Shown: piece by piece, positions 15,018 to 43,056 of the stretch
Layout of the letters: every line of letters begins with the position of its first letter
How positions within the stretch are numbered: position 1 is the stretch's first letter
Assembly (NCBI GenBank): GCA_024234955.1
Contig: JACKNK010000006.1
Location: forward strand, 92,771 to 156,770
DNA length: 64,000 nt
Direction: 5' to 3'
From: Gammaproteobacteria bacterium
GTDB lineage: Bacteria > Pseudomonadota > Gammaproteobacteria > JACKNK01
Program-made: the position numbers and the translations under genes
Notes under the pieces: model-generated
Seen by the model: only the letters and a program-made list of their open reading frames with translations
Told to the model about the DNA's origin: nothing
The model's database searches: none

Positions 15018-15091
15018 GGGCGTTGGTTGCTTGTATGCAGAGCGGCAATTAGGCTGCACAGGATAACAACAACACGCGAGGCGACGTGCCC

Positions 15092-16129
15092 ATGGACATG
15101 ACCCAGCTGCTGGCGTTCGCGGTCAAGAACAAGGCGTCCGATCTGCATTTGTCGGCCGGCCTGCCGCCGATGATTCGCGTCGATGGTGACGTGCGCCGCA
15201 TCAACGTACCGGCGCTGGAGCACAAAGAGGTCCATGCCCTGATCTACGAGGTCATGGACGATCGCCAGCGCAAGGATTACGAGGAATTCTACGAGACCGA
15301 CTTTTCCTTCGAGGTCCCGCGACTGGCGCGTTTCCGTGTCAACGCCTTCAACCAGTCGCGCGGCGCGGCAGCGGTGTTTCGTACCATCCCCACGGAAATC
15401 CTCAGCCTGCAGCAGCTCAATGCACCCAAGGTTTTCGCCGAACTGGCGGGCATGAACCGGGGCATTGTCCTGGTCACCGGGCCGACCGGTTCGGGCAAAT
15501 CGACCACGCTGGCCGGCATGGTCAATCACAAGAACGAGACCGAGGCCTGCCACATCCTCACGGTCGAGGACCCGATCGAATTCGTTCATGAGAGCAAGAA
15601 AGCGCTGATCAATCAGCGCGAAGTGCATCGTCACACCCTGGGCTTTACCGAGGCGCTGCGCTCCGCCTTGCGCGAAGACCCGGACGTGATCCTGGTCGGC
15701 GAAATGCGCGACCTGGAAACCATTCGTCTCGCGCTTACCGCCGCCGAGACCGGCCATCTGGTTTTCGGCACCCTGCACACCTCTTCCGCCGCCAAGACCA
15801 TCGACCGAATTGTCGATGTGTTCCCCGCCGCCGAAAAAGCGATGGTGCGCTCGATGCTGTCCGAGTCCCTCCGGGCGGTGATTTCCCAAGCCCTGATCAA
15901 GCGCATCGATGGCGGTCGCGTCGCCGCGCACGAGATCATGATCGCCACCCCCGCGATCCGGAACCTGATCCGTGAAGACAAGATCGCGCAGATGTATTCG
16001 GCGATTCAGACCGGCTCGGCACAGGGCATGCAGACGCTCGATCAGAATCTCCGTCATCTGGTGGACAAGAAACTGATCACCATCGGCGACGCACGCATCC
16101 GCGCCGTCAACAAGGAAGCGTTCTACTAA
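15092..16129 (+). CDS. pilT: Type IV pilus retraction ATPase PilT
   Basis: 'ASDLHLSAGLPPMIRVDG', Walker A 'GPTGSGKSTTL', 'ILTVEDPIEF', 'ILVGEMRDLETI', 'AETGHLVFGTLHT'. Confidence 0.95.
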   Translation: MDMTQLLAFAVKNKASDLHLSAGLPPMIRVDGDVRRINVPALEHKEVHALIYEVMDDRQRKDYEEFYETDFSFEVPRLARFRVNAFNQSRGAAAVFRTIPTEILSLQQLNAPKVFAELAGMNRGIVLVTGPTGSGKSTTLAGMVNHKNETEACHILTVEDPIEFVHESKKALINQREVHRHTLGFTEALRSALREDPDVILVGEMRDLETIRLALTAAETGHLVFGTLHTSSAAKTIDRIVDVFPAAEKAMVRSMLSESLRAVISQALIKRIDGGRVAAHEIMIATPAIRNLIREDKIAQMYSAIQTGSAQGMQTLDQNLRHLVDKKLITIGDARIRAVNKEAFY

Positions 16130-16289
16130 GGAACCTCTGATCTATTCATGCACGTTCATCTGAAGCCTGAAATCACGTCTTTCGGCGTTGCAAAACTTGT
16201 GAATAGCGGGCTATTCGCTACGTTTCGCGCCTTGAAACCCACGATTTCATTCGTCCATTTGAGCCGCGACTGAATAAATCAGAGGTTCC
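16130..16289. repeat. MITE-like element with 19-nt terminal inverted repeats
   Basis: GGAACCTCTGATCTATTCA ... TGAATAAATCAGAGGTTCC (18/19 complementary) bracketing ~120 nt in the pilT-pilU gap. Same termini recur at 47361-47527. Confidence 0.6.
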
Positions 16290-16347
16290 CCAACCTTACC
16301 CTCCGTATCGTTCCCGCTCCGTCCCCGAGTCAACCAGAGGTTCCCGA

Positions 16348-17481
16348 ATGGACATCCGCGTCCTGCTCAAAATCATGGTCCAGAAAGGGGCCTCGGATCT
16401 GTTCATCACCGCCGGCGTCGCGCCCAGCTTCAAGCTGAACGGCAAGATGATGCCGATCGCCCAATCGGTACTGCCGGCGGACAAGGCTGAGCAGCTGGTC
16501 GTCGGGGTCATGGACGAAAAGCAGCTCGCCGAGTTCTACGAACACCGTGAATGCAACTTCGCCATCGAGTATCAGGGTATCGGTCGATTCCGCGTGTCTG
16601 CGTTCGTGCAGCGCGGCCATGCCGGCATGGTGTTGCGACGCATCGAGACCGAAATCCCCTCCATCGAGCAATTGAACCTGCCCAAGGTCACCGCCCCGTT
16701 GTCACTGACCAAACGCGGCCTGATCGTCGTGGTCGGTGCCACCGGCTCAGGCAAATCCACCAGTCTGGCGGCCATGATCGGCAACCGCAACGAAAAGACC
16801 AGCGGACACATCATCACCATCGAAGACCCGATCGAATTCATCCATCCGCACAAGAACTGCATCGTCAGTCAGCGCGAAGTGGGTGTGGATACCGAATCCT
16901 TCGAGGTCGCGCTCAAGAACACCCTGCGTCAGGCCCCGGATGTCATCCTGATCGGTGAGGTACGTTCCCGCGAGACCATGGAATACGCGATCAATTTCGC
17001 CGAAACCGGACACTTGGCGATGTGTACCCTGCACGCCAACAACGCCAACCAGGCTCTCGATCGGATCATCCACTTCTTCCCGGAGGACCGCCGTCAGCAG
17101 TTGTTGATGGACCTGTCGCTGAACATGAAGGCGATCATCGCGCAGCAGTTGTTGCCGGCGAAGAACGGCAAGGGGCGGCGGCTTGCCGCCGAAATCCTGA
17201 TCAACACCCCGTTCGTCTCCGAGCTGATCCGTCGTGGCGAGGTCCACAAGATCAAGGACATCATGAAGCGTAGCCGTGAACTGGGTATGCAGACCTTCGA
17301 TCAAGCCCTGTACGACCTTTATCAGGCCGATGAGATCACCGCCGAGACGGCCCTGGCGCACGCGGACTCGGCCAACGAGGTGCGCCTGATGATCAAGCTG
17401 GGTACCGGCGAGGTGGAGACCAGCGGCGATGGCGCTGGCGATGGTCCGAAACCCGATGCCGGCAACCTATCGTTGATGTGA
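16348..17481 (+). CDS. pilU: Type IV pilus ATPase PilU
   Basis: PilT paralog with 'ASDLFITAGVAPSFKLNG', 'GATGSGKSTSL', 'IITIEDPIEF', 'AETGHLAMCTLHA'. Extended C-terminus. Confidence 0.9.
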   Translation: MDIRVLLKIMVQKGASDLFITAGVAPSFKLNGKMMPIAQSVLPADKAEQLVVGVMDEKQLAEFYEHRECNFAIEYQGIGRFRVSAFVQRGHAGMVLRRIETEIPSIEQLNLPKVTAPLSLTKRGLIVVVGATGSGKSTSLAAMIGNRNEKTSGHIITIEDPIEFIHPHKNCIVSQREVGVDTESFEVALKNTLRQAPDVILIGEVRSRETMEYAINFAETGHLAMCTLHANNANQALDRIIHFFPEDRRQQLLMDLSLNMKAIIAQQLLPAKNGKGRRLAAEILINTPFVSELIRRGEVHKIKDIMKRSRELGMQTFDQALYDLYQADEITAETALAHADSANEVRLMIKLGTGEVETSGDGAGDGPKPDAGNLSLM

Positions 17482-19942: not shown

Positions 19943-22252
19943 TCAGCGTTTTCGGGCGCGGGCAAATGCGTCCGCCATACTGCTGCCGGGCGCTGACCCA
20001 CTGCTGGAAACCGGCTTGGACGACGGCGTAGAACGGCCAGTAACGCGGGGATGCGCCTCGCGCACGCCACGCGGATCGTCATTCATGCGCATGCTCAGGC
20101 CGACACGCTTGCGCGCCAGATCGACCTGCATGACCTTAACCTTGACCACGTCGCCCGCCTTGACCACCTGATGCGGGTCTTTGACGAACCGGTCTGCCAG
20201 CGCCGAGATATGCACCAGACCGTCCTGATGCACGCCGATGTCCACGAACGCGCCAAAATTGGTGACGTTGGTCACGACCCCTTCGAGGATCATGCCCGGC
20301 GCCAGGTCCTTGAGATCCTCGACGCCTTCCTGGAAGGTCGCGGTCTTGAACTCCGGGCGCGGATCCCGACCCGGCTTTTCCAGTTCGCTGATGATGTCGC
20401 GCACCGTCGGCAGACCGAACTGGCTATCGACAAAATCCTGCGGGGCAAGACGCTTCAGGAAGGCGGCGTCACCCAACACATCGGCCATGCCTTTACCGGT
20501 GCTGGCGAGAATCCGCTCGACCACCGGATAGGCCTCGGGATGGACCGCCGACGCGTCCAGCGGATTGTTGCCGCCGACGATACGCAGGAAGCCCGCCGCC
20601 TGTTCAAAGGTCTTGTCACCGAGGCGCGGCACATCCTTGAGCGCACGCCGATCCGGGAACGCCCCGTGGGCATCGCGGTGCGCGACGATATTCTCCGCCA
20701 GAGTCGCGGTCAGCCCGGAAACCCGGGCCAGCAACGCGGGCGATGCGGTGTTCACATCCACTCCGACCGCATTCACGCAGTCCTCGACGACCGCCTCCAG
20801 GCTGCGCGCCAGACGCAGCTGTGAGACATCGTGCTGATACTGACCGACCCCGATCGATTTCGGATCGATCTTGACCAGCTCGGCGAGCGGATCCTGCAGG
20901 CGGCGCGCGATCGACACCGCACCGCGCAACGAAACATCGAGCTCCGGCAACTCGTGACTGGCCAGTTCGGAGGCCGAATACACCGAGGCCCCCGCCTCAC
21001 TGACCATGATCTTGGTCAGACGCAGTTCGGCATGTTTTTGAATCAGCTCGGCGGCCAGCTTGTCGGTTTCCCGCGACGCAGTGCCGTTGCCGATGGCAAT
21101 CAGATCGACCTGATGTTTCCGGCACAGTGCCGCCAGCACCGCAATGGTCTGATCCCACTGATTCTTGGGGACATGCGGATACACCGTCGCGGTATCGACG
21201 ACCTTGCCGGTGGCGTCCACGACCGCGACCTTCACCCCGGTTCGCAGGCCCGGATCAAGCCCCAGGGTGGCGCGCGGACCGGCCGGTGCCGCCAGCAGAA
21301 GATCGTGCAGATTGCGCGCAAACACCGCGATCGCCTCCTCATCGGCGGCCTCGCGGATACGGGTTAGCAGCTCGGTTTCAAGTCGTGTCAGCAATTTGAC
21401 GCGCCAGGTCAGACGCACGGTATCGGCGAGCCAGGCGTCGGCGGCACGCCCGGCATTCTCGATGCCGAAACGGGCCGCGACCATGCGCTCCGGACGGGTG
21501 CGTCCCTCTGCGTCCGCGACGATGTCCAGCGACAGGCTCAGCACCCCCTCGTTTCTCCCCCGGAACAACGCGAGCGCGCGATGCGAAGGAATCTTGTTGA
21601 GGGCTTCATCGAATTCGAAATAATCACTGAACTTCGCGCCTTCCTGGGCCTTGCCCGCCATCACTTCCGACTTCAGTCGCGCCTCATCCCACAGCCAGTC
21701 CCGCACCCGACCGGCGAGTTCTGCGTCTTCCGCGAATTGCTCCATCAATATCTGCCGCGCCCCGTCCAGCGCGGCCTTGGTATCGGCGACGTCGTGCGCG
21801 GCATTCACAAAACCGGCGGCAGCGGTTTCCGGGTCGGTGTCGGGTGATTCGAGCAACTGGCGTGCGAGCGGCTCCAGGCCCGCTTCCCGGGCAATCTGCG
21901 CCCGCGTGCGCCGTTTTTTCTTGTACGGCAGGTAAAGGTCTTCGAGACGGGTCTTGGTTTCGGCGCCGAGCAGATCGCGTTTCAAGGCATCGCTGAGTTT
22001 GCCCTGCTCTTCGACCGCTTTGATCACCGCGACGCGCCGATCTTCCAGCTCGCGCAGATACCCCAGGCGCTCGTCGAGCAGACGCAGTTGAGCGTCGTCC
22101 AGCCCTCCGGTCACTTCCTTTCGATAGCGGGCGACGAAGGGGACCGTCGCGCCCTCATCGAGCAGGGCGATCGCGGCCTCGACCTGGCTAGCGTGAACCT
22201 CGATTTCAGCGGCAATACGCTGGCTGATTGGCGGTAACAATGGCGGCTCCAA
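19943..22252 (-). CDS. tex: Transcription accessory protein Tex (S1 RNA-binding)
   Basis: '[19 protein letters not shown]', YqgF/RuvC-like and HhH core, C-terminal S1 domain '[26 protein letters not shown]'. Confidence 0.9.
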
Positions 22253-22358: not shown

Positions 22359-24446
22359 TTATGGCTGGTTAGCCGGGCGCAACTCAACGCGGCGATTCTT
22401 CGCACGACCTTCTGCGGTTCGATTGTCGGCAACCGGTTCCGTCTCGCCGTAGCCTTTGGAACTCAGCCGGTCTTTCGGAACACCCTTGTCGATCAGATAG
22501 GTACGCACGCTTGCGGCTCGGCGTTGCGACAGATCGAGATTGTACGCATCCGGACCCTGCGCATCCGTATGGCCGGCAATTTCCACGACCAGATCGCCAT
22601 TGGCGATCAGAACGTTGGCGACACGGTCAAGAATCACCGAAGACGCTTCGGTCAGGGTGTCGTCATTGCTCAGGAAGTTGACGCCTTCGAGGGCGATGGC
22701 CCGGATCAGGGAGCAGCCAAACGGGCTGACCTCATCGCCGGCCGGAGTCCCCGGACAAAGATCTGCCGAATTGGCCACACCGTCCGCATCGTCATCCGGC
22801 TCGCAACCGTCTGCATTCACCGGGGTGCCAGCGGGGGTGTTGGGGCATTTGTCCCCCGAATCGAGGACCCCATCGTGATCGGAATCCAGTTCGCAACCGC
22901 TGGCATCCACCGTGGCACCAGGAACGGTATCCGGACAGTTGTCAGCGGAGTCACGCACGCCGTCACCGTCGCTATCCAGCTCGCAGCCGTTCACATCCAC
23001 CTTGGCACCGGCAACCGTATCCGGACACTGGTCGGCAGAGTCACGCACCCCGTCGCCGTCGCTATCCAGCTCGCAGCCGCTGGCGTCCACCTTGGCACCG
23101 GCAACCGTATTCGGACATTTGTCAGCGGAATCGCGCACCCCATCGCCGTCGCTATCCAGCTCGCAGCCGTTCACATCCACCTTGGCCCCGGCGACCGTAT
23201 CCGGACACTGGTCGGCAGAGTCACGCACCCCGTCGCCGTCGCTATCCAGCTCGCAGCCGTTCGCGTCCACCTTGGCACCGGCAACGGTGTCCGGACATTT
23301 GTCAGCGGAATCGAGGACGCCATCGGCATCGGAATCGAGTTCGCACCCCAGCCCGTCCACCTTCGCGCCCAGCACGGTGGACGGACAGCGGTCACGCGCG
23401 TCGATCACTCCGTCGCCATCGGCATCAAGTTCACAGCCATGCACGTCAACCGCCGCCATCGGGGTACTGGACGGGCAATCGTCCAGACCATCGACAACGC
23501 CATCCTTGTCGCCATCGAGTTCGCACCCATTGCGATCCACGACTGCGCCGGTTCGGGTGTTCGGGCACTTGTCCTGACTATCGACGACCCGATCGCCGTC
23601 GCTATCGAGCTCACAACCCTGCGTATTCACGGGCAGCCCCGCTGCGGTCTGCGGGCAGAGATCGAGGCGATCGACAACCCCATCCGCATCGGAATCCAGC
23701 TCACAACCTTTGGCATCGACGCGCGCGACCGCCGGCGTTTCCGGACACTGATCCAGGACATCGATGACGCCATCCACATCCGAATCCAGCGGACAACCGG
23801 AAGGATCGACAGGCACACCCGCAGCGGTATCCGGGCAACGATCACCGCGATCGACCACGCCATCGCCGTCGCTGTCCCGTTCACGGAAGCGGATGCGGAA
23901 AGTGACGTCGTTGACGTCATCGGTGTAGAAGCTGAGGGTATTGGTGCGCTGCACCCATTCACCCTCACGATTGCTGGCGTGATCGACGACTTCGAAGTGC
24001 GCCGGCATCACCCAGGTGTAATTCAGATGGGTGAAGTTCTCCGGGTGGTGCCAGATGCCGAAATGACCATTGGCACGCGGCTCACCATCGGAGCTGGTGA
24101 AGGTGTAAATGCCGTCCTCGCCGCGCACCAGACTGTCGCCGAACGGGGCCGCGTAGATCACCGAGAAATGCCCCTGATTGAAATGCAGGGTATTGACCTC
24201 CTCGTCGTCGGCCTTCCATTCATGCTTGTTCGGGCTGATGTAATAGAAGTCCGCCAGCTGCACCGATTTCTCGACATGGAAGTCGTAAGAAGTGTTATCC
24301 GTGCGCAAGGTGCGGTGCAGCAGATAACCGGCGGCGTCGTCGTTGAGATAGACGATGGTGTCGCTGGTGACCTCGGCATTGACCTGCGGGGAGAACAGAA
24401 TCGGGACCAGGATCGCGAAAAGCGGGAGATTAAGGCGCATCGACAT
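22359..24446 (-). CDS. OmpA-family peptidoglycan-binding protein with 13 thrombospondin type-3 (Ca-binding) repeats
   Basis: Signal peptide 'MSMRLNLPLFAILVPILFSPQVNA', ~190-aa N-domain, 13 x 30-aa 'DSDGDGVxDxxDxCPxT...GCEL' units, C-terminal OmpA_C 'GHTDAQGPDAYNLDLSQRRAASV...NRRVEL'. Confidence 0.85.
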   Translation of the reverse strand: MSMRLNLPLFAILVPILFSPQVNAEVTSDTIVYLNDDAAGYLLHRTLRTDNTSYDFHVEKSVQLADFYYISPNKHEWKADDEEVNTLHFNQGHFSVIYAAPFGDSLVRGEDGIYTFTSSDGEPRANGHFGIWHHPENFTHLNYTWVMPAHFEVVDHASNREGEWVQRTNTLSFYTDDVNDVTFRIRFRERDSDGDGVVDRGDRCPDTAAGVPVDPSGCPLDSDVDGVIDVLDQCPETPAVARVDAKGCELDSDADGVVDRLDLCPQTAAGLPVNTQGCELDSDGDRVVDSQDKCPNTRTGAVVDRNGCELDGDKDGVVDGLDDCPSSTPMAAVDVHGCELDADGDGVIDARDRCPSTVLGAKVDGLGCELDSDADGVLDSADKCPDTVAGAKVDANGCELDSDGDGVRDSADQCPDTVAGAKVDVNGCELDSDGDGVRDSADKCPNTVAGAKVDASGCELDSDGDGVRDSADQCPDTVAGAKVDVNGCELDSDGDGVRDSADNCPDTVPGATVDASGCELDSDHDGVLDSGDKCPNTPAGTPVNADGCEPDDDADGVANSADLCPGTPAGDEVSPFGCSLIRAIALEGVNFLSNDDTLTEASSVILDRVANVLIANGDLVVEIAGHTDAQGPDAYNLDLSQRRAASVRTYLIDKGVPKDRLSSKGYGETEPVADNRTAEGRAKNRRVELRPANQP
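22740..23877. repeat. 90-bp coding tandem repeat array (13 units; near-identical core ~22930-23290)
   Basis: Successive 90-nt blocks such as 'ccggacactggtcggcagagtcacgcaccccgtcgccgtcgctatccagctcgcagcc...' recur almost verbatim. Confidence 0.85.
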
Positions 24447-24588
24447 GGCGGGCTTCCGTTTCAGAGGCAGCAAGGAATGGCGCCAAATGTACCGGAGCGC
24501 GCCCCAGGACCCCATTCGGAAGTGCTTTGCCGGGCATAAAAACAGTTATGGATGACCGGGTTTCCGCGTTCAGACCTGGCATGCGCGA

Positions 24589-25596
24589 TCACGGCCTGGT
24601 GGCATTCAGACCGACAAAGCTGCCGCCATTTTCTTCCGCGAGCTTGCGCATCAGGGCGGCGAAACGGACCGCATTCAAAGTCGCTTCCTTGCCGTTCTGG
24701 AACATGGTCGGAAAACCGACCGCGTGGATACGTACCAGGCGTTCCTTGGGTTTTTTGCCGGAATTCAGACGGCTCACGGTGTTGAGCAGGTCCTGGATCG
24801 ATCCGCGCGAAAAATCGTCGCCAAACACATACAGACTGATGCGCCGATCCGGGCGATGGTATTTGCGGATCGCTGCTTCGATGCCCTCTTCCGGGCTTGA
24901 ATTGGAGAACGGGGTCCAGCCGGCGAGACGCTCGAGAATGGCCTTGCGACGGCCTTCGGTATCCGGAATCCAGCGGTCCTTGTAGGCCTCGAACATGTAA
25001 TCGCCCATGTCATTCATGACCTGGATGCCCTTGACCTTGGGATGGATGTCGAGGATTTCCGTCAGCTTCTTGAGCACCAGCGACCAGGCGCCCTTTTGCA
25101 TCGAGCCCGAGGTGTCGATGATGAAGATGATGTATTCCGCATCGACCGGCACCCCGCCGATGGTGGTGTCTTCCTGATGGCGCTGATAGCTGGCCCCGAG
25201 CAGGCGACGCTGCGCCTCGCTGAGCTTCTGTTGGGCCTGGCTGAGCTGCTTGGCGATCACGGTCTGCGCTTCGTGGGTGTTGCGCGTGGTCTGATATTGC
25301 CCCCGGATTTTGGAAAGATCGCCCTGCAGACGGGCAAGCCGGGTCTTGATCTCGGAAAGTTGCTCCTGGCTGGCGGTCAGATCGCGATTGAGCACCGTGG
25401 TCTCACCACGAATCTCGAACAGTTCCTGCTGACGTTGCGCGACCAGTCCGGAAAGGTCGGCCGAGATGCGCTCGATGGTCACCGGTTCGGCAATCTTGAC
25501 GATCACCAGCAGCAGAATGATGGCCCCGAAGCCGCAGGACACCACGTCCAGGAAAGACATGGAAAAGATCTCAACCTCACGACGACTGCGTTTCAT
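24589..25596 (-). CDS. ExbD/TolR-like single-pass protein with coiled-coil and vWA ectodomain (paralog 2)
   Basis: TM 'SMSFLDVVSCGFGAIILLLVIV' with an embedded Asp. About 90 aa of Q/E/R/L-rich heptad-like sequence. vWA with MIDAS 'IIDTSGSM'. Confidence 0.75.
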   Translation of the reverse strand: MKRSRREVEIFSMSFLDVVSCGFGAIILLLVIVKIAEPVTIERISADLSGLVAQRQQELFEIRGETTVLNRDLTASQEQLSEIKTRLARLQGDLSKIRGQYQTTRNTHEAQTVIAKQLSQAQQKLSEAQRRLLGASYQRHQEDTTIGGVPVDAEYIIFIIDTSGSMQKGAWSLVLKKLTEILDIHPKVKGIQVMNDMGDYMFEAYKDRWIPDTEGRRKAILERLAGWTPFSNSSPEEGIEAAIRKYHRPDRRISLYVFGDDFSRGSIQDLLNTVSRLNSGKKPKERLVRIHAVGFPTMFQNGKEATLNAVRFAALMRKLAEENGGSFVGLNATRP

Positions 25597-25669
25597 GACG
25601 CACCCCGCGAGGCAAACGCGCTAATCGCAACGTCGCAGAGAACGCAGCGCGGGCGATTCGCCACCGGGC

Positions 25670-26761
25670 TCACGGCCAGTCCCTCGATGGCGTGATGAAA
25701 GCGCCTTTGCTCTGCACCGCGAGTTCCCAATAACCGGCGGCAGCGAAGGCGTCGCCTTCCATCGGGAACAGGATCGTGTTCACCGGAACGCCTTTCGGGA
25801 GGCGTTTGACTGCGTCGTTGAAGTGTTCGATGCGTTCCTCGTTGGTGACCTTGGTCTTGCTCGGTCTGGACTTGCCCTGGGTCGGCAGGCCGTCGGTGAT
25901 CAGCAGGACGTTGTCCGGCTGCGGCGTCATGTCGCGCACCGCGTCGAAGGCGTTGTACAGACTGGTGCCACCGCGTGGCAGGCGTTGATAGACGGCGCGG
26001 ATGGCGTCTTCAATGTCGCCGCGCTCGCCCGTCTTCAGCCAGCCTGGCCGGCCTGCGATGACCGGCTCGGCCTGGGTGTTGAAGGCGTAAACCTGGAATT
26101 CGCCGCCCACCGGGAGATTGCTGATCAACCATTCTGCCGTGGCCTGGGCGCGTTTCCATTTCGGCGAGGCGCGCTGCTCGGCTTCGCTCAGGTTGCGGCG
26201 CAGGATCACGTTTATGACCGTCTCATCGAGCATGCTGGCGGAGGCATCGAGCAGGATCAGCACGCGTTTGCCCCCGAGTTTGAGCCCGGTCAGATACTGG
26301 CGGTCGCCGTCGCCCTGAACGCGATGCAGCCGCTCTCCCTCTTCCCGATCGGCTTCGGCCTGCGCGCCCAGACGTTTATTTTCGGTGTCCAGGGTCTTCA
26401 GGTCGGACTTCAATTCGTTGATGTGCGCCTTGGTCGCCAGAGTCTGCTGTTCCAGGCGGGCAATTTCGACATCCAGGTCGGTGCGCTTCTGAATCACCCG
26501 TTCGGCCTCACCTTCCATGCGCACCCGTTCCGCCTCGGTCGCCTCCAGACTGTTACGCGCCTCGACCAGGTTCGCCCGCCCGGCGATCACCTCCTTCTCC
26601 AGCCTGAGCACCTCGCCGCGCAGATCGGTGAAGGTCTTTTCGCGGGTCTGCACGGTATCGTGATTGAGGATCAGCACCAGCAACACCACCGCGCCGAAGC
26701 CGCAGAACATGATGTCCAGGAACGACAGCGAGAACGGCGAAAGCGTGCGGCGTGGTCTCAT
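25670..26761 (-). CDS. ExbD/TolR-like single-pass protein with coiled-coil and vWA ectodomain (paralog 1)
   Basis: TM 'SLSFLDIMFCGFGAVVLLVLIL' with an embedded Asp. About 105 aa of coiled-coil-like sequence. vWA with MIDAS 'LLDASASM' and 'LLITDGLPT'. Confidence 0.75.
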   Translation of the reverse strand: MRPRRTLSPFSLSFLDIMFCGFGAVVLLVLILNHDTVQTREKTFTDLRGEVLRLEKEVIAGRANLVEARNSLEATEAERVRMEGEAERVIQKRTDLDVEIARLEQQTLATKAHINELKSDLKTLDTENKRLGAQAEADREEGERLHRVQGDGDRQYLTGLKLGGKRVLILLDASASMLDETVINVILRRNLSEAEQRASPKWKRAQATAEWLISNLPVGGEFQVYAFNTQAEPVIAGRPGWLKTGERGDIEDAIRAVYQRLPRGGTSLYNAFDAVRDMTPQPDNVLLITDGLPTQGKSRPSKTKVTNEERIEHFNDAVKRLPKGVPVNTILFPMEGDAFAAAGYWELAVQSKGAFITPSRDWP

Positions 26762-26786
26762 GGTCGGTTATGGGATGCGGTCGAAC

Positions 26787-27581
26787 TCACGAACGCAGCT
26801 TGCGGATGAATTCCCGGTCCACATAACGCTCGGCATCGAGCACCAGCCGTTCCTGCATCAACTGGATCTGGTGGATGAAGAACATCAGCACGATGGAAAT
26901 GACCAGGGCGATGAAGGTCGAGTTGAAAGCCACCCCCAGGCTTTCAGTCACTCCGGTGATGTCGCCCTCAACCGCCTTGTGTGCCTGACCCAGTGCATCG
27001 CCGATACCGCGCACCGTGCCGATGAAACCGACCGAGGGAATCGCCCAGGCGATGTAGCGGATGATCGACAGTTCGGTCTCCATGCGCCCGCCTTCGGAAT
27101 CGCAGACATCGCGTGCGGCCGTGGATACGTCCTGCACATTGCCGGTCGCAGCGAAGCGTTCGATCGCGGTCGCCAATGCCCTGGGCAGCACCCAGTCGCG
27201 CATCTGCGCGGGCAACGCGGCAAGGCGCTCGGACAGCAGTCGCGTGTCTTCCTTGCCGATTGGCATACCAGGTGGCAGATCGAGCAGGTCGCGTTCCCCC
27301 AGGCGTTGCTGCCGCCAGGTATCCCGACCCTTGTAAGCGAGAATCGCGAACGCCCACAGCATGAGCACGAGACAGGACTCCTGCTCGTAGTCCTTGAGCA
27401 CCACGTAGAAGGAATCTTCGGTGATCGCGTCCGGATTCGCGGCCAGCATCTCCGCTTTGGCGCGCAGATCGGCATCCGCATTGGGCCGGATCACCGCCAC
27501 GTAGAGCGCATGCATGACGATGAAGGCGATCAGCAGGGCGAATATCTGGTACAGCAATTCGGTCGGCAGGTTCTTTTTCAT
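26787..27581 (-). CDS. MotA/TolQ/ExbB-family proton channel protein
   Basis: N-terminal TM, large soluble loop, C-terminal TM pair 'IAWAIPSVGFIGTVRGIGDAL ... LGVAFNSTFIALVISIVLMFF' typical of the family. Confidence 0.85.
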   Translation of the reverse strand: MKKNLPTELLYQIFALLIAFIVMHALYVAVIRPNADADLRAKAEMLAANPDAITEDSFYVVLKDYEQESCLVLMLWAFAILAYKGRDTWRQQRLGERDLLDLPPGMPIGKEDTRLLSERLAALPAQMRDWVLPRALATAIERFAATGNVQDVSTAARDVCDSEGGRMETELSIIRYIAWAIPSVGFIGTVRGIGDALGQAHKAVEGDITGVTESLGVAFNSTFIALVISIVLMFFIHQIQLMQERLVLDAERYVDREFIRKLRS

Positions 27582-27844
27582 GAACGAAGGCTTTGCTCAA
27601 GGTGTGGGCAACAAGCCGCGACGAGCGCGGGCGACGTTGTCCATCCTACATTTCTTGATGCCATGCGTGCCTTACCGCTTCCGCACGATAGCGCGAAGCC
27701 GTTCGACCGGCGGACGATCTTAAAACTTCGGTGGGATTGACGATGAACAGCCTTATCGCTTGAATGCGCGACCCGCCGAAGCATCCCGGAATCGTATCGG
27801 CGTGTTGCGTTTGAGCCCGCGCAATCCGGGCCGTGTGTAGCGTG

Positions 27845-28615
27845 ATGCGTCTCATCAGTTTCGACACCTATCGCAGCGTCGGTATCACCGGGGTCATCCC
27901 GCTCAAACCCGACGGGTTCGCCCGTCACCAAGCGCTCATTGCATCCGCCGACTGGGTATTGTTCCCGCAGACCTGGCAGCTGAATGTGCTCTGCTATGCG
28001 TGGAAACTTCCCGTATTTCCGTCGCCCGCTAGCTACGACATCGGCTATGACAAGGTCGAGCAGACCCGGGTGTTCGAAGCGCTGGCCCCGTCGCATGTCC
28101 CACATACCTTGATCCTGCCGGCGACGGAAACGGCGATGGCCGAGGCGATTGACGTGCTGGGCCTGCCGATGGTGGTCAAGGAACCGCGCAATTCGATGGG
28201 CCGAGGCGTGAGTCTGATCGAAACCCGCCAACAACTTCGGGAATGGTGCGCAAGCAGGCCGGTGCTGTATGCGCAGGAGTACCTGCCCCTGGAAGGCGAT
28301 CTCCGCATCGTCTGGGTCGGCGATCGCGTCGTCGCGGCCTATTGGCGACTGGGCGGCGACGGGTTTCACCACAACCTCGCCTGCGGCGCTGAACTTTCCT
28401 TCGATGCCATCCCTGACGCGGCACTGGAGCTGGTGTCCCGCGTGGCGACCGCGCTCGACATCGATCACGCCGGATTCGACGTCGCCTGGGTCGATGGCCA
28501 CCCTTACCTGCTGGAAATGAATGTCCTGTTCGGCAACATCGGCGTACAGCGGGCAGGCGTTGCCCTGGGGCCTGTCATCGAGGGCTATCTTCGCCGGCGC
28601 CAGATGGGCCGATAA
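27845..28615 (+). CDS. ATP-grasp (RimK-like) ligase family protein
   Basis: 'LPMVVKEPRNSMGRGVSLI', 'LYAQEYLP.EGDLRIVWVGDRVVAAYWR', 'DHAGFDVAWVDGHPYLLEMN' match the ATP-grasp core. Divergent from the MotA-like operon. Confidence 0.65.
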   Translation: MRLISFDTYRSVGITGVIPLKPDGFARHQALIASADWVLFPQTWQLNVLCYAWKLPVFPSPASYDIGYDKVEQTRVFEALAPSHVPHTLILPATETAMAEAIDVLGLPMVVKEPRNSMGRGVSLIETRQQLREWCASRPVLYAQEYLPLEGDLRIVWVGDRVVAAYWRLGGDGFHHNLACGAELSFDAIPDAALELVSRVATALDIDHAGFDVAWVDGHPYLLEMNVLFGNIGVQRAGVALGPVIEGYLRRRQMGR

Positions 28616-28752
28616 CTGGATTGGCCCCGTCCTTCACCGACCGATTCTCCTGGCCGGCATCATGTCCCTGGAATCCCTGCAGTCCATCTGAAAAGGAGTA
28701 CCGCCGGTATTCGAGAGATCTCACGCGCGGCGGTGATGGATGATCGTGTTCT

Positions 28753-31700
28753 TCATAAGCCGAATACATCACCCAATGTATTGAAGCCTTTGGATATTGC
28801 TTTCCAGGCCTTGTTGAAGGCTTTGACGAACTGAATCTGGGCGAAAAATGCGGCGATTTCCTTGCCCACCACCCCAAAAGTGTGAAAGACCTCCGTACTG
28901 ACGAAGCCACCGGCGAGCAGGGTGTAACGGAGTGCATCGTGCGAAATGTTCAACACGGTGTTGAGCGCCACGCCCGCTTCTTTAACCGGCACGCCAATGT
29001 CTTTGAGGGCGGCGGCGACCCATTGCAACTTCAAGTTGGCTGCGCCGTCCCAGGCGACGTTTAGGAAGCCGGTGACGTTGACGGCGTCGAACCCGGCCGC
29101 ATGAAGCAGTTTGCCGACCGTGGTCAGTTGGAATTCGGTGAAGCCATAGAGGCCCTTGAGAACCATTCCAGTCTCTATGCCGTTGAACCCCAGAAGCTTC
29201 AGGGTGCTGGCAATCTGGTTCTGCGGGGACTGCAGGACGCTCTTCATCACCGCGCCGATGTCGTTGACGGGGAACCCGGCGGCCTTGAGCGCGGCAGGGA
29301 TACCCGTCGCATCGGCGAGCTGCGCTTGCAGGCCGGTCGCGACCTCCCAGGCGTTGTAACCACCTCTCTTGAGCACCAAGGCAAGGGCGTCGGTACCCAG
29401 GTTGTAGACCGGCCCCAACCCGGTCGCGGCGAACACGGAATCCAGTCCGGAATTCTTGAGCACGGTGAGTGCGGCGTCCGCAGGGAGCTGATAGAAGGTG
29501 TTCAAACCCTGAACGATGTCCTGGGCGCTGGCTTGCATGCGGAGCGCGGCCTTGACGGCAGATTCCGGGTCGGCGTTGTAGACACTCTTGGCGACGGACA
29601 GCGCGTTGACCGTCAATTCGACGGAGCCGCGTGCGACCGCATCCGCGAGGTCCTCGAACTTCCCCCAGACCATCTTGATGAGATCAAGACCGTGCACGGC
29701 AAGGTGGTTGAGGATCGCCGTATAGAGCGTATCGAAACCGGTGGGCGGTGTGCTCAGCGTCAGTGTCGGGAAAGAGATGTTGACACCGTAGAGGTTGAGG
29801 GCGCCGCTGAGCGACATCGAGAATTCGGCACCCACCGCGACGCTGATTGCCGTCTGCAAAGTGAAGGAGACGTTGATCAGATTCAGGTTGCCAAGCGGAG
29901 TGGGCAACTTGCAGTTGAGGAAAACGCCCATCGTGCCCGAGGCCGAATAACGCGTTGGCGAAATGCTCGCAACCAGGTTGGTATTGAGCGAGAGCCAGTT
30001 GTGACTGAACGTGAGCTTGATACCGTCATTGTTGCCTTGAAGGTCAACTCGCTCGGTGGCACCGAACAACTTCATTCGCGCCGACCCCGCCAACGTCGGC
30101 GTTCCCGACATGGCCAGGTTCGCCTGCAGGACCGGCCCCGGGTTGTTGGGCCCGACGCCTGTCAGTTCCACGATGCCCGCCAGGTCGATCGAGTCCATGT
30201 CCAGCTTCAGACGCAGTCCGTCGCTGGTGTCCGCGACCAGATAGACGCCCGCGCCCCAGCCCCACAGGTCGGAGCGGCCTTGCACGGTCACGCCCTCGTC
30301 GCGGAAATGGATGCCGCCGATTGAACAGGCGGTGGGCACGATGTTGACCTTCACGCCCTTGAGCGACAGGTCGAAGACCTGGTTGAACACGCCTTGTACC
30401 TGGGAAAGCGGGACATAGCGGAGCGGCGAGACCGCCTTGATGACGTCCGCGACTTTGAGCTTTTCGAAATCTGCGGCGATGACGAATTCGTCCGGGTCGG
30501 TGATGTCGACCTTGAAAGCCAGCATGCCGTCCACGGCACCGAGACGCATGTCGCCGACGATGCCGAAGCTGTCGAGCGCACCGGCGACGTTGACGCCGGC
30601 TTCGACGGCCATCCGTCGCAGCGATATGCCGGGTATGCCGAAGGGTTTGTCCCAGGCGCCCGAGTTCTGGACCTTTCCGGTGAGTTCGCCGTCCGGGTGT
30701 CGTCCGGTGCCGTTCATGGTGAACGAGCCGGTCAGGGATTCCGGTTCGAGCTTGAAGCCGCCCGTGAACACAAGGTGGCGGGTGCTGGTGCCTTCCTTCA
30801 GGGACACGACCAGGTCGCTGGACAGCGTGAATGCCGGTTCCGGAGGCGTCCCCTTCACCGAGATACCGAAGTCGGAGCGGGTCAGACGCAACTTGAAAGC
30901 GCTGGTGTCGACCAGGGTGATCTGACGTTTGGCCGCCATTTCGAACACGAATTCGGGCGTTCGGCCGGAGGCATCGATGGCCGCGTGCAGGGCCAGTTCC
31001 TTGAGCTGGAGGAGCTTGCCGACGAGGCGGACGATGTCATTGGTCGATTCGGAAATCTTGATGTTGGCGAAGGCGTTGAAGCCTTCGTTGATGCCGGAGT
31101 CCAGGCCCGGGTCGTATACCGTCTTGAGCGTCTGGACGATGATCTTAGGATCGGTCAGCGCCAGGGAGCCGATGATGGGAAGTTCGGTGATACCTGCCAG
31201 CGAGCGGGCGGGTTGAGCACCCGAAAGGACCTGGTTGAGGCTCAACGGGGTCGGCAGGGTCAGCGTGATCGCGCAGTTCGGTTTGCCCTTGTGATGGAAG
31301 AACGCGACTTCGATGCCGGTGTCGTCGGTGCTCAGCAACGTGGTCTTGCCGCTGAGGATCAGCGCGTGGTTGTCGGGTACGCCGAGTTCGACCTCACCCT
31401 TGTCGTTGATGGGGGTTTCTGCGCCGGCGACGCCTTCCATGCCGAGCGTACCGGGGCGGCTGGAGACCTGGACGCCGGTGACGGTGATCGCGGCGCCGAT
31501 GATCTTGCTGACGACGTCGCCGGCGAACGGTGTCAGCAGAGTCCGGTCCAGCGTGATCTGGTCGTTGCGTGTGGCGGCGGTCAATTGCGCCTTGAAGGTT
31601 GCCGTGGAGGCTGGCGTCGCGGTCGCTGCGTATGGGTTGTTGGTCACGCTGATCGTGCCGTCCCGGTTGGCGGTGGCCAGCAGGTTGCCTGCGGAGTTGA

Positions 31701-38999: not shown

Positions 39000-41696
39000 T
39001 CAATGCACGGAAGTTAGTCCGCGACGGGAAGAGAGCAGAGCGACGTCTTTGCGGCTGGTGTTGCGGTGCAGACTATTTAGAACACCTTGCTGGGTTTCGG
39101 GTGTCCAAAAAATCCGCAGATAGTTTCGAGCGCGAGTAATTGCTGTGTAAAAGATGGCGTGAGTAATGTCGTCTTCATTGGCATCGGTGATGACGACTTT
39201 TACAGAGCCATACTCTAGCCCTTGTGCCTTGTGAATCGACACAGCGTAGGCGACCTGAAATGGAACGGATGTGTTCAGCGCGTCATCGTCCTCGTCACTT
39301 GCGTCGTAGTCATAGACAGTGAAACGAACAATCGAATCTCTAATCCAGATCAGGTCAACACCGAGGACATCAAGCTCGGTTAGTGGGCGATCGAGTTCAA
39401 CATCAAAGTTAATCCATCCGCGATCGTACTCTATACCGACGATTCGGCCCTTTAGGTTGTTATAGATAACTGGATGAAATCGCTCGGTTTCGTGGAAAAG
39501 AACGGGGTCGCCGACCTTGTACGTGTTCATGCGCCAGATGACCGCTGGGCTGTGGTTGCTACTCTGCAAAAAGCGGTTGATATTGTTAATGCCATACAAG
39601 CCGTCGTAGTTAAGGCAAAGAATAATTTCATCCTCACCTTGGGGTTCGAACAGCGACTTGTCTAGCACGGTCGAATAGCTGTTGCGAGCGATGCTCTCGG
39701 CAATGTCGTCGTCGATATTTCGAACTTTATTCCAAAAATCTAGTAGGGATGGGTTCGTGGTTCTAAAGGGTGTTGGAAGTTCGAACACAGACGAACCTGG
39801 TATGAATGAGCGCGCGATACCAAACCAGTTGCCGAACTGGATCGACTCAATTTGGTAGACATCACCGACGAGGACAAGCAATTTGAAGGAGACTTTGTTC
39901 ATAACTTTGACCAGGTCTTCATTGCTCACAGTGCTGCATTCATCAATGATGAGAAGGTCGTATTCTGAATCTGCGCCGGATCTAAAAATCTCTTTGCTGA
40001 TGGTTCGGAAAGACGAGTTTTGTGCGGTTACCTTGCGCTTAAGGTTGTCGATAGCAGGATTGGTGTGCGCGAGGAAGAGCTTTTTCTTGTCGTTGAAATA
40101 GTGCGCTATGTGGTCAACCATTGTTGACTTCCCCGTGCCCGCAGCACCGTAGATCAGGGCGACTCGTGACTGACTGAACAACAGCTTGAGCGCTTCGATC
40201 TTGGTTGGATCGTCGATCCTGTGATATGTGCCAGCGAGCCAGCGCTCAACGGCTTGTGTGTATCCGGCGACCTCAGAGGACGCGTACTCCAGAAGTTTCT
40301 CCACGATAGAAACGGTATCGTTCTCGTACCCACGTATGAAAACGTGCCCCTTGTCGAACAAAAGCTCTCGCTCCTTGTGTTTGTAGTACAGATTACCGTT
40401 GTGTGCGGAGATTAAATTGTTTACGTCGCCGTACTCATCCAAGTCGGATGCGGGCGTGTAAAGAACTCCGTGTCGCTCCACATTGTTCTTTACCCGCCGA
40501 GCCAGCAGCTCGTGATTTCGTCCGGTTATGTCAAGGCTTTCGACAAGATCCCAATATCTAGGGTTGTGCCCTGGCAACGACGTACAGAACGGCATCTTGT
40601 CAAATGGAATGCAACCGAATGGAAGCTTCAATCTGGAAAGGGAGTCGCATCCATCGCGGTGATACTGCGGTTTGAGAATTTGGTTTTGCATCCGCAGCAT
40701 GAGATAGCGAATGACGTTATGCCCCGGTACTCTGGATCTGACGATTTGGCGAGCCGCATCCAAAACGGGAAATATCGAAGGCGTGGTTACAGCTGCTGTC
40801 CCAGCGTGCCGGACGCTAATGTACGCATCGTCGGATAAATCGACAAGGTCCAACAAACTATCGGGCCCAGTTGTGAGGCTGCGCATTAAGTGACGGTACT
40901 CTTCGGAATTCGTCCGTACCTTTGTGTCTATGCCAAATAGACGTGCGAAATTGTTGAGCTCACACGGTCTGATAGAAACTTCCCATTCCCGGATTATCGT
41001 GATTGGCATCGACTGGTCTAGCACTTCGATCATGTCGCGCTGAAGCGTCAGCATGGCTGCATATTTGTCCGTCATGTCAATATGAGTGAACGCGATAATT
41101 CGATCAAACTTGTTAACTTTGTTGACCGCGCGATAAAAAGTCACCTCGTAGTAGATGCGACCGCCGACAAAAAACGGACGTGTTTTGTGAATGTAATACC
41201 GGTTGCTGGCGCTGCTGTGAAGTGAACTCGAACGTACTCGATCGATTCGCGCTGCGATCTTTTCGTGGTATTCCCGAAGGGATGGGTCTAGGTCGATCGG
41301 GAAATTTTCTAAGTTATGCAGAATCACAACTCCAAAGTCGTTTTGGAGCAAGCTGCGAAGACGGTGAAGGTATTCGTAGTATTTGAGCATCAATCGCTCA
41401 GAAGAGTCGCCATCTAAAGTGTAGTGGGACGCACTTTTCTGAATGAGTTTGTGAAATTGGCCTAGAAATCTAAATCTTGCCCTGCTTCTGACAAAAGAGA
41501 GACCAGGGCCGACAGCATCGTAGTGGAAGTCAGTATCAGATGGGCCCAGATGGATGCGAACAATCACGCCCTCAACGAGGTTGCGAAGCTGAGAAAGTAT
41601 GTTTTGGGAAAGCAATGTCCGCTGATCAGAAAGCGATTCGATGTTTCGGCATATAACCGCGTCGGCACTCTCTATCTGCTGGCTTACCGTCGTCAT
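39000..41696 (-). CDS. SF1B (RecD/Dda/TraA-like, AAA_30 + UvrD_C_2 type) helicase with ~500-aa N-terminal domain of unknown function
   Basis: C-half has Walker A 'GAAGTGKST', Walker B 'LLIIDECS', 'LVGDVYQ', 'AVSIHKAQGLEY', 'YTAITRARNYL'. The N-half has no recognised motif. The gene is clearly AT-richer than the window. Confidence 0.85.
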   Translation of the reverse strand: MTTVSQQIESADAVICRNIESLSDQRTLLSQNILSQLRNLVEGVIVRIHLGPSDTDFHYDAVGPGLSFVRSRARFRFLGQFHKLIQKSASHYTLDGDSSERLMLKYYEYLHRLRSLLQNDFGVVILHNLENFPIDLDPSLREYHEKIAARIDRVRSSSLHSSASNRYYIHKTRPFFVGGRIYYEVTFYRAVNKVNKFDRIIAFTHIDMTDKYAAMLTLQRDMIEVLDQSMPITIIREWEVSIRPCELNNFARLFGIDTKVRTNSEEYRHLMRSLTTGPDSLLDLVDLSDDAYISVRHAGTAAVTTPSIFPVLDAARQIVRSRVPGHNVIRYLMLRMQNQILKPQYHRDGCDSLSRLKLPFGCIPFDKMPFCTSLPGHNPRYWDLVESLDITGRNHELLARRVKNNVERHGVLYTPASDLDEYGDVNNLISAHNGNLYYKHKERELLFDKGHVFIRGYENDTVSIVEKLLEYASSEVAGYTQAVERWLAGTYHRIDDPTKIEALKLLFSQSRVALIYGAAGTGKSTMVDHIAHYFNDKKKLFLAHTNPAIDNLKRKVTAQNSSFRTISKEIFRSGADSEYDLLIIDECSTVSNEDLVKVMNKVSFKLLVLVGDVYQIESIQFGNWFGIARSFIPGSSVFELPTPFRTTNPSLLDFWNKVRNIDDDIAESIARNSYSTVLDKSLFEPQGEDEIILCLNYDGLYGINNINRFLQSSNHSPAVIWRMNTYKVGDPVLFHETERFHPVIYNNLKGRIVGIEYDRGWINFDVELDRPLTELDVLGVDLIWIRDSIVRFTVYDYDASDEDDDALNTSVPFQVAYAVSIHKAQGLEYGSVKVVITDANEDDITHAIFYTAITRARNYLRIFWTPETQQGVLNSLHRNTSRKDVALLSSRRGLTSVH

Positions 41697-41814
41697 CTAC
41701 TGTCAAATTCCGCTTGGGGTATAAGAATCAATTGTGCCATCGCCGCATTTCTGAGTTAAGAACGCGAGTAGAGCGCGAGGGTCAGTTCTCGCATTGTTGC
41801 GTCGCGGCATGATC

Positions 41815-42111
41815 TTACTCACCGAAATATCCGGCTTCGCTCTGATGCCTGATCGCGAGGATCAATACGGCCTCCTCGCAACGTTCGTAGCTGTACAACG
41901 CGACATAGCCCGAACGACCACGGGAAATTAGTAGTGCTCTCAATCCGTGCTCAGCGGCTCGTCCGATTAAAGGATGATTGGCAAGTACTTCAGTGGCTTC
42001 TGCGATCAGGTCCACCGTCTCGGTGACGGCCGCACGGTCGCTCTCAATGAGGAAGTCAGCAAGACATTTGGGTGCGGCGAGTGCCTGCTCGGAATAGATC
42101 AGTCGCGCCAA
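41815..42111 (-). CDS. Type II toxin, RelE/ParE family
   Basis: 'PLIGRAAEHGLRALLISRGRSGYVALYSYERCEEAVLILAIRHQSEAGY' is the ParE-like C-terminal pattern. 13-nt overlap with the upstream antitoxin. Confidence 0.75.
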   Translation of the reverse strand: MARLIYSEQALAAPKCLADFLIESDRAAVTETVDLIAEATEVLANHPLIGRAAEHGLRALLISRGRSGYVALYSYERCEEAVLILAIRHQSEAGYFGE

Positions 42112-42383
42112 GTCTTGGCCTTCGGTCTTTCTGCGGTGTCACCACTGGCGCGAGCACGCAGGTAGTCATGCACTTCGGCGGCGTCGAAGCCGGTGCCGGA
42201 TGCCAGGGTTTCTGATTCGGCCGCCAGGGCCTCGGCCATGAACTCGGCTCGTTGGGCGGCAGCCGTGGCGGCATCGCGAATAGCGCTTACCATGAATGCG
42301 TGGGGGGTGATTCCCCGAGTCTTGGCGGCTTCCGCTGCGAGTTTCTTGACGTCTTCGGGGAGCTTGAGTGAGGTGGTGGACAT
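42099..42383 (-). CDS. Ribbon-helix-helix antitoxin
   Basis: 'TSLKLPEDVKKLAAEAAKTRGITPHAFMVSAIRDA' RHH fold. Upstream of, and overlapping, the ParE-like toxin. Confidence 0.7.
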   Translation of the reverse strand: MSTTSLKLPEDVKKLAAEAAKTRGITPHAFMVSAIRDAATAAAQRAEFMAEALAAESETLASGTGFDAAEVHDYLRARASGDTAERPKAKTWRD

Positions 42384-42464
42384 GCGTGATCACCCAGTGC
42401 GTTATGGGTGTTACCAAGGTGGCACTCGTCGAAAGGCGCAGCAATTTGATGGTGTTGTCTGGCG

Positions 42465-42755
42465 TTATTCGACGTGTGGTTTGGTCGCCATATCCAGTCC
42501 TACGGCCCGCAACACGGCGAGGGTGGTTTTCAAGGTGGGGTTTCCCCTGTCGCTGAACGAGCGGTAGAGCTGTTCGCGGGACAGGCCGGTATCTCTGGCG
42601 ACCTGGGTCATGCCCTTGGCCCTAGCGACCACGCCCAGGGCCTTGGCGATGTAAGCGGCGTCACCAGTTTCGAAGGCGTCGGCCAGGAAGGTTTCGATGG
42701 CCTCCGGCGTCGTCAACGCGTCGGCGGGGTCGAAGGGGAACAGGATTTCGTTCAT
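42465..42755 (-). CDS. HigA-type addiction-module antidote protein (HTH), no cognate toxin
   Basis: 'FDPADALTTPEAIETFLADAFETGDAAYIAKALGVVARAKGMTQVARDTGLSREQLYRSFS..GNPTLKT'. Only ~80 nt separate it from hicB, leaving no room for the killer partner. Confidence 0.7.
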   Translation of the reverse strand: MNEILFPFDPADALTTPEAIETFLADAFETGDAAYIAKALGVVARAKGMTQVARDTGLSREQLYRSFSDRGNPTLKTTLAVLRAVGLDMATKPHVE

Positions 42756-42837
42756 TTCCTTTGAACTCGGTGTGGAGTTGACGCTCAGACCCGGGCGCAA
42801 GCGAGGGTGTGGGCAAGAGCGTTTGCGGAATTGGTCG

Positions 42838-43050: not shown

Positions 43051-43056
43051 GAAGCC

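Follow-up and report, generated by a model that had tools for sequence, protein, structure and literature searches.

What kind of machine is encoded when a channel gene of the MotA/TolQ/ExbB type is followed by two stalked vWA proteins and by none of the usual partner subunits? The question is raised by positions 22359-27581 of a 64,000-nucleotide stretch of a Gammaproteobacteria bacterium genome (contig JACKNK010000006.1, forward-strand positions 92,771 to 156,770), hereafter the window. A first interpretation made from the letters alone, here called the sequence-only reading, had taken four genes at this position for an undescribed ion-driven envelope machine, in which a channel works two vWA-tipped subunits together with a TSP3/OmpA anchor. 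Ion-driven motors of the 5:2 type power flagella, Ton uptake, Tol-Pal division, gliding and the type IX secretion system, and Zorya defence, and each new output module of such a motor has so far revealed new envelope biology. Our analysis indicates that genes 1-3 probably belong to a motor family that has already been predicted in silico, and it redraws the boundaries of the putative system. The four open reading frames (ORFs) are:

Gene 1, 26787-27581, minus strand: 264 amino acids, MotA/TolQ/ExbB-type channel subunit, presumed pentameric A subunit
Gene 2, 25670-26761, minus strand: 363 amino acids, vWA paralog A
Gene 3, 24589-25596, minus strand: 335 amino acids, vWA paralog B
Gene 4, 22359-24446, minus strand: 695 amino acids, secreted TSP3/OmpA_C protein

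The ORF coordinates bear out the layout that had been proposed, with all four genes co-directional on the minus strand and separated by gaps of 25, 73 and 142 nt. The start of gene 4 was taken at MSMRL..., the point where the alignment with its ortholog in a related locus (L003) begins; the longest ORF extends to 24515.

Is this architecture already known? Williams-Jones et al. (Mol Biol Evol 2025; PMC12204202, section 8, Fig. 4c/d) defined in silico a family in which a tolQ-like gene is accompanied by vWA proteins with an Asp-bearing trans-pore helix. In their description the vWA proteins have no SHLS motif and carry a TolR/ExbD-like trans-pore helix with a conserved Asp, no tolR or exbD gene is syntenic, and AlphaFold 3 predicts the Asp to lie inside a ring of threonines; the vWA genes are 'predominantly found in heterologous pairs' and belong for the most part to Proteobacteria and Verrucomicrobia, with Idiomarina loihiensis as the reference species. 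Genes 1-3 present the same picture, namely a tolQ/motA-like gene and then two single-transmembrane vWA proteins, an Asp, a Thr ring, no tolR, exbD or motB, and no SHLS motif or His, whereas the window copy differs in being split by 19.9 kb and in having a TSP3/OmpA neighbour. Judged by these described features, we estimate a probability of about 0.72 that genes 1-3 are a member of this family and have a stator-type mechanism. The core motor idea is already published as a prediction, and on this match the locus is a new member of an experimentally uncharacterised family. The sequence-only reading could not match the cluster to a named system, which does not hold, since the same architecture and the same inference stand in that paper; a match to an already characterised system had also been named as grounds for giving the idea up, and here the published match exists but is itself a prediction only.

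The assignment of gene 1 to the MotA/TolQ/ExbB proteins stands: Pfam PF01618 (MotA_ExbB) scores 52.4 bits against a cut-off of 22.9, and the pore threonines are kept. The rationale for the latter statement is a profile of 30 gene 1 family members (A3), which reaches E. coli TolQ at E=0.0078 and aligns the invariant segments GFIGTVRGI and AFNSTFIAL with GLFGTVWGI and ALIATAIGL of TolQ, so that T189 and T222 correspond to the two pore-lining threonines. TolQ is reached via the family profile only; a phmmer search of the single gene 1 sequence against PDB sequences gave no match. Gene 1 is not a TolQ or ExbB equivalog (NCBIfam 21.9 and 19.3 bits, far under the cut-offs), and its four hydrophobic segments have a MotA-like arrangement, with an apparent extra N-terminal transmembrane pair relative to ExbB and TolQ.

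Genes 2 and 3 share one layout, in which an N-terminal Asp-bearing transmembrane helix is followed by a helix of ~100 residues, a linker and a vWA domain with a metal-ion-dependent adhesion site (MIDAS). The transmembrane Asp is D16 in gene 2, where the MIDAS reads DxSxS...T...D, and D17 in gene 3, where the motif is DTSGS. An AlphaFold model of gene 2 was built from a 42-sequence alignment (A1), a single-sequence model having been discarded as poor (predicted local distance difference test, pLDDT, 59). The alignment-based model (mean pLDDT 88) shows an uninterrupted helix at residues 9-139, comprising the transmembrane segment and a further ~100 residues of roughly 15 nm, then a low-confidence linker and an alpha/beta domain at 166-363. 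The best Foldseek matches of this domain are vWA domains (ITIH1, CLCA1, BatB and Cav alpha2delta) with target-normalised TM-scores up to 0.73, and Pfam VWA_2 matches gene 2 at 1.2e-8 and gene 3 weakly at 1.3e-3. Residues F14, D16, G23 and L27, the MIDAS serine S174 and D290 of gene 2 are invariant among 42 diverse homologs (down to 30% identity), as are D17, D161, S163, S165 and D260 of gene 3 among 30 homologs. The two proteins are 24% identical pairwise. When their families are compared by hhalign, they align over 316 columns with a probability of 99.9% (E=1.3e-33), which indicates that the proteins are full-length paralogs; paralogs is also what the sequence-only reading had called them. 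The C-terminal vWA fold of gene 3 is indicated only through this profile paralogy and the MIDAS motif; its family profile returned only coiled-coil noise from the PDB.

The sole transmembrane helix of both paralogs was said to carry an Asp in the motif SFLD(I/V)..CGFGA, and this is the case (SFLDIMFCGFGA in gene 2, SFLDVVSCGFGA in gene 3). The family consensus is xFSLSFLDxIxCGFGAVILL, without a His, and F-L-D...C-G-F-G is invariant or nearly so. Across 83 loci the Asp is present in 160 of the 163 gene 2 and gene 3 ORFs, the three exceptions being frameshifted or truncated. Its local setting, F-L-D-[IV]-[MV], resembles F-I-D-V-M of ExbD and L-L-D-V-L of TolR. The window and 82 related loci of up to 17 kb contain no ExbD or TolR homolog by jackhmmer with E. 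coli ExbD and TolR, and Pfam finds neither ExbD nor MotB in genes 1-4 or in the genes around them. Genes 2 and 3 are thus candidate analogs of the B subunit, because the Asp is invariant and near the cytoplasmic end of a single-pass helix, and because the genes strictly adjoin a MotA/ExbB gene with a Thr ring and no other B subunit is present.

How widely does this trio travel together? The gene 2 family comprises 5,651 clusters at 90% identity (E<=1e-5) and 1,446 clusters at 50% identity, and a genome scan listed the 80 closest loci among its matches. Within Gammaproteobacteria they fall in Lysobacterales, Thiogranum, Arenicellales, Methylococcales, Pseudomonadales, Cellvibrionaceae, Steroidobacteraceae and Thiotrichales, and outside it in Desulfobacterota, Myxococcota (Myxococcales), Acidobacteriota, Planctomycetota (Isosphaeraceae) and Kiritimatiellia. 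Every locus uncut by a contig end has gene 1, a gene 2-type gene and a gene 3-type gene in this order on one strand; this order and strand hold in at least 70 of the 80 loci, spanning at least six phyla or classes, and a gene 1 homolog adjoins a gene 2 homolog in 79 of 83 loci. With one gene of each vWA type per locus in at least 70 loci, the two families, related yet distinct, form a heterologous pair at each locus. Co-occurrence outside this genome, on which the sequence-only reading had made its idea depend, is therefore found for genes 1-3. Environmental bacteria very commonly carry this family, in which a pair of unlike vWA proteins on stalks stands in for the usual ExbD/TolR/MotB subunit. 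Like the published family, it is found in Proteobacteria and in the Planctomycetes-Verrucomicrobia-Chlamydiae (PVC) group.

Two observations on this set concern individual loci. At 10720-12094 of L001 (the same as L009 8714-10088), a single metagenome-assembled genome, an apparent frameshift splits the gene 3 paralog into two ORFs, the longer of which lacks the SFLD helix; this is either a pseudogene or an assembly error. About 44 more distant loci (L036-L082) carry between gene 1 and gene 2 a further gene, gX, for a cytoplasmic protein of ~470 amino acids (for example L039:1725-3146 and L067:6572-8014), some members of which have a C-terminal FHA domain; gX is absent from the window and from its closer relatives. 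Its N-terminus reads like an actin/Hsp70-type ATPase fold, with no supporting Pfam match.

Several points nevertheless weigh against placing genes 1-3 in a stator-type family. Aligned by hhalign with E. coli and Serratia ExbD and E. coli TolR, D16 falls on ExbD D25 (slSFLDvi over vtpFIDVml), but with a probability of only 14.6% (P=0.0018). Pfam ExbD does not match genes 2 or 3 at E<=1, and even at E<=10 a 50-column N-terminal profile picked up no PDB chain of ExbD, TolR or MotB; the chance matches that the transmembrane-helix profile returned there were NDUFB4 and Fuzzy. Homology of the helix to ExbD, TolR or MotB cannot be demonstrated from ~25 residues. The sequence-only reading had staked its idea on such profile searches, and of this relation the Asp-on-Asp alignment was recovered and significant profile similarity was not. 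Moreover, unlike MotB, genes 2 and 3 have no OmpA domain, peptidoglycan-binding region or plug region; the trio was identified with the published family by matching features and not by alignment; the literature reports no phenotype for any family member; and the motor genes lie 20 kb from the module described below, so co-expression is not assured.

The same weakness of the helix comparison is what would favor a reading without a motor, in which genes 2 and 3 encode membrane-anchored vWA proteins for scaffolding or adhesion, like BatA/BatB of the aerotolerance operon, the channel of gene 1 is unrelated or has just a regulatory part, and the transmembrane Asp is structural. BatB is among the Foldseek matches of gene 2 (rank 9), a TPR protein of the system has a weak BatC match (E=4.6e-4), and homology of the helix to ExbD is without statistical support. 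However, an Asp in 160 of 163 single-pass helices, beside a MotA/ExbB gene with both threonines and with no other B subunit, is difficult to account for in any other way. Among the window neighbours neither a MoxR nor a DUF58 partner is found, and the gene order is strictly gene 1-gene 2-gene 3. We consider this alternative unlikely, and the stator-type motor reading is well supported.

Does gene 4 belong to the motor? Its domain content is as the sequence-only reading described, since Pfam finds 13 TSP_3 stretches and a peptidoglycan-binding OmpA domain at 1.9e-24. It has a signal peptide and no Asp helix. NCBIfam NF053612, the PA1041-family anchor, scores 295 bits (cut-off 250), with the score spread over the 13 repeat stretches, and at 695 amino acids gene 4 is three times the length of this model and has an extra N-terminal domain of ~190 amino acids. 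Among 46 loci with at least 2.5 kb of downstream flank, a gene 4 homolog lies downstream of gene 3 in one, L003, which is the closest relative of the window copy (gene 2 83% identical), and even there a further 1.5 kb separates the two genes. In a second locus, L062, the ORF that immediately follows gene 3 has an OmpA domain and is unrelated to gene 4.

These counts bear on the possibility that the four genes are a self-contained machine, with the TSP3/OmpA protein as cell-wall anchor or working partner. Its position 142 nt downstream of gene 3 on the same strand, with no terminator-like site found between the two, and its strong OmpA_C peptidoglycan-binding domain, which genes 2 and 3 lack, would suit that role, and so would the downstream ORFs of L003 and L062. 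Against this stand the presence of a homolog in 1 of 46 loci, the wide occurrence of TSP3-OmpA proteins as a stand-alone family (to which the NF053612 score points) and the almost universal co-occurrence of the trio with a different module of five genes. The four-gene machine is largely refuted by these co-occurrence data and we hold it to be improbable; gene 4 is probably a lineage-specific neighbour and not part of the system. The motor with vWA-tipped stalks survives from the sequence-only reading, and its claims of an undescribed system and of a TSP3 partner do not. That reading was also correct in finding no TonB, TolA, Pal, flagellar, gliding or ZorCD-type partner, as Pfam, NCBIfam and PADLOC give no match to any of these, including ZorC and ZorD, in the four proteins or the flanking genes. 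The locus is flanked by a Tex-like gene (19943-22252) and by a divergent ATP-grasp gene (27833-28615), and a promoter and terminator scan of 22.0-28.8 kb was uninformative.

Which genes, then, do travel with the trio? All-against-all clustering of flank ORFs, with counts taken over loci that have enough flank, identified four genes which, together with a fifth, small one, normally sit directly upstream of the motA-like gene. The window copies of these lie at 47528-53924, about 20 kb from gene 1 and outside the cluster that had been described, and the four larger ones are intact, with order and strand as in relatives:

52977-53924, minus strand: secreted Gly-rich protein, 315 amino acids, signal-like segment 15-33, in 18/18 loci
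51745-52977, minus strand: lipoprotein, 410 amino acids, lipobox LLAGC, in 39/41 loci
50206-51741, minus strand: periplasmic TPR protein anchored by a transmembrane helix, ~500 amino acids, start codon uncertain, in 43/46 loci
47706-50141, minus strand: bitopic inner-membrane protein with FHA-like, transmembrane, PEGA and FGE parts, 811 amino acids, directly upstream of gene 1 in 52/54 loci
47528-47716, minus strand: small secreted peptide, 62 amino acids, a signal peptide and then ...PITPSESISADSAVPFPVDI-stop at the C-terminus

The boundaries of the putative system are thereby corrected on gene co-occurrence: gene 4 is out, and five genes 20 kb away are in, which gives an envelope system of eight genes that is divided into two parts in this genome. 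The secreted protein has a signal peptide, a helical N-terminus and a Gly-rich, charged low-complexity region. The lipoprotein is 82% identical to its L003 ortholog, contains a hydrophobic, Gly-rich stretch around residue 300 and matches no family in Pfam or NCBIfam. The TPR protein (Pfam TPR_2/TPR_11, transmembrane helix 44-62) is 57% identical to the L003 ortholog. The 811-residue protein has a transmembrane helix at 156-174 and periplasmic PEGA/CarboxypepD_reg repeats, with Pfam FGE-sulfatase at 4e-42 and PEGA at 5e-39, and its FHA-like N-terminus scores 19.5 bits, just under the cut-off of 20.7. The best NCBIfam match of its FGE domain is GldK/PorK (TIGR03525) at 98.7 bits, which is a resemblance and not membership because it falls far short of the 350-bit cut-off. 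No cysteine occurs in the last 80 residues, which we take to mean that the catalytic Cys pair is missing, as in GldK.

The small-peptide gene overlaps the end of the FGE gene. In 59 of 66 eligible loci its C-terminal motif, F-x-P-[ST]-E-x-[IV]-x-x-D-x-x-V-x-F-P-x-D-I-stop, is encoded no more than 260 nt from where gene 1 begins, and these C-terminal 19 residues are among the most conserved sequence of the whole system, with no family assignment. The published clusters are captioned as vWA genes adjoining tolQ-like genes 'only', and PMC12204202 mentions no upstream module, peptide or gX; beyond that prediction of the trio, a literature search found no paper describing any of the three. What this locus adds to the published prediction is that the TSP3/OmpA neighbour is incidental and that a five-gene module and a peptide motif travel with the motor. 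The module supplies concrete candidates for head binding, motor anchoring and regulation, and it makes the function directly testable.

A mechanism can be proposed from these parts. Five gene 1 copies would assemble in the inner membrane as a ring-shaped ion channel of the MotA/ExbB type, inside which one gene 2 and one gene 3 N-terminal helix would stand side by side, with D16 and D17 facing the conserved Thr ring and taking the role of the ExbD/TolR/MotB aspartates. Ion flow would turn or cycle this heterodimeric axle, which would run on into a stalk of parallel helices, ~100 residues and roughly 15 nm long, and carry two different vWA (MIDAS) heads toward the wall and the outer membrane. 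The heads would probably act on products of the upstream module and not on the TSP3/OmpA neighbour. We infer the 5:1:1 stoichiometry, the rotation, the head ligands and the physiological output from the arrangement of the parts. Candidate head ligands, we likewise infer, are the acidic C-terminus of the peptide and the PEGA/FGE, TPR and lipoprotein products; the small peptide is a possible MIDAS ligand, contact with the wall may come from the PEGA repeats instead of gene 4, and the FHA domains suggest control by Ser/Thr phosphorylation.

How does such a machine compare with the motors already described? With ExbB-ExbD and TolQ-TolR it shares the Pfam family of the A subunit, both pore threonines and a single N-terminal transmembrane helix whose Asp stands a few residues in from the cytoplasmic side. 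Unlike those systems, the locus has no TonB or TolA, genes 2 and 3 have a helix and a vWA domain instead of the ExbD/TolR periplasmic fold, and the predicted axle is heterodimeric, its long helical stalk ending in vWA heads. With MotAB/PomAB and ZorAB it has in common a MotA-family channel, an Asp-bearing B helix and the four hydrophobic segments of gene 1, but the B subunits here have no OmpA-like domain or plug, and a FliG-interacting cytoplasmic domain is likewise missing. We also weighed, and rejected, the vWA-MoxR ternary conflict systems (Kaur et al. 2020); that paper contains no MotA or ExbB, and no MoxR is present here.

The parallel with GldKLMN/PorKLMN, the core of gliding and type IX secretion, extends to the output module. 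Both combine a 5:2-type motor, a long B dimer that spans the periplasm and an adjacent protein of the FGE-sulfatase fold that is non-catalytic, and the gene order, FGE protein then A subunit then B subunits, is the same. The FGE protein here is, however, an inner-membrane bitopic protein with FHA-like and PEGA parts and not an outer-membrane lipoprotein as GldK is, the host phyla differ, and NCBIfam detects no GldL, GldM or GldN homology in genes 1-3. For this reason the parallel with gldK-gldL-gldM(-gldN) is a lead and not a classification. A wider and more speculative hypothesis, which we hold only tentatively and consider doubtful as a whole, is that the trio is the engine of an unrecognised trans-envelope machine of eight or nine genes, functionally analogous to the PorKLMN core and widespread outside Bacteroidota, in Gammaproteobacteria, Desulfobacterota, Myxococcota, Acidobacteriota and the PVC group. 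In such a machine an FHA-regulated PEGA/FGE protein, a TPR scaffold, the lipoprotein and the Gly-rich protein would work with the motor, the invariant acidic motif of the peptide would be the MIDAS ligand of the rotating heads, and the output would be secretion, surface movement or outer-membrane remodelling.

In the window the module and the motor are separated by a block at 27582-47527 (19.9 kb), which lies between the small-peptide gene and gene 1. A mere 93 nt lie between the end of the peptide gene and gene 1 in L003, and the homology between window and L003 stops at ~27588 and resumes at ~47703. L003 lacks the block at this position, as do 52 of 54 other loci. The intact state of the two halves suggests a system that still works as two transcription units; the two halves of such a system can evidently lie 20 kb apart. 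The block contains the ATP-grasp gene, a sortilin/BNR-like protein, a ComA/ComB fusion, a ligand-gated channel homolog, and an MMPL transporter with a LolA-like protein, and no tRNA gene was found in it and no integrase among the ORFs scanned. Within it, an islet at 36113-41696 has a GC content of 46-58% against ~62% for the window, falling to 46-52% at 39-41.5 kb. Its genes are ParD/ParE (36113-36657), MNT/HepT (36848-37653), BrnT/BrnA-like (37775-38330), CopG-like (38356-38763) and a superfamily 1 (SF1) helicase-like gene (39000-41696, 898 amino acids), and the whole resembles a toxin-antitoxin or defence islet gained by horizontal transfer.

Could the motor then serve anti-phage defence, as a Zorya-like or other MotA-channel system? 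PADLOC returns weak matches of ZorA to gene 1 (E=0.0017 over 88 residues) and of ZorB to the OmpA domain of gene 4, and the islet of toxin-antitoxin and helicase genes is in the nearby 20-kb block. However, gene 1, at 264 amino acids, has no long ZorA tail and the locus has no ZorC or ZorD match, the ZorB matches are confined to the OmpA domain, a generic one, of gene 4, which is not conserved, and all that PADLOC returned were generic coiled-coil or OmpA matches. The conserved partners are envelope proteins in fixed synteny across phyla and not a variable defence island, and the islet belongs to a block that relatives do not have. A defence role is accordingly the least plausible of the explanations considered, and very improbable. 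The uncharacterised motor family of Williams-Jones et al. remains our preferred assignment for genes 1-3.

Several further genes of the block are of separate interest. A protein of 1,251 amino acids at 28753-32508 has weak sortilin/Vps10 and beta-propeller matches. At 33267-35785 the ComA/ComB (phosphosulfolactate synthase/phosphatase) fusion adjoins the homolog of pentameric ligand-gated channels (Neur_chan_LBD 1.6e-16); the longest ORFs of the two overlap by ~360 nt, so that one of them probably starts at a codon further downstream. At 43372-47233, directly downstream of the small-peptide gene, an MMPL/RND-type transporter (968 amino acids) is followed by the LolA-like protein (316 amino acids), and in L001 an MMPL gene is also near the system, on the opposite side. 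Elsewhere in the window, at 15086-17481, a tandem pair of PilT/T2SSE-type ATPase genes (347 and 377 amino acids) lies upstream of a pyruvate kinase gene.

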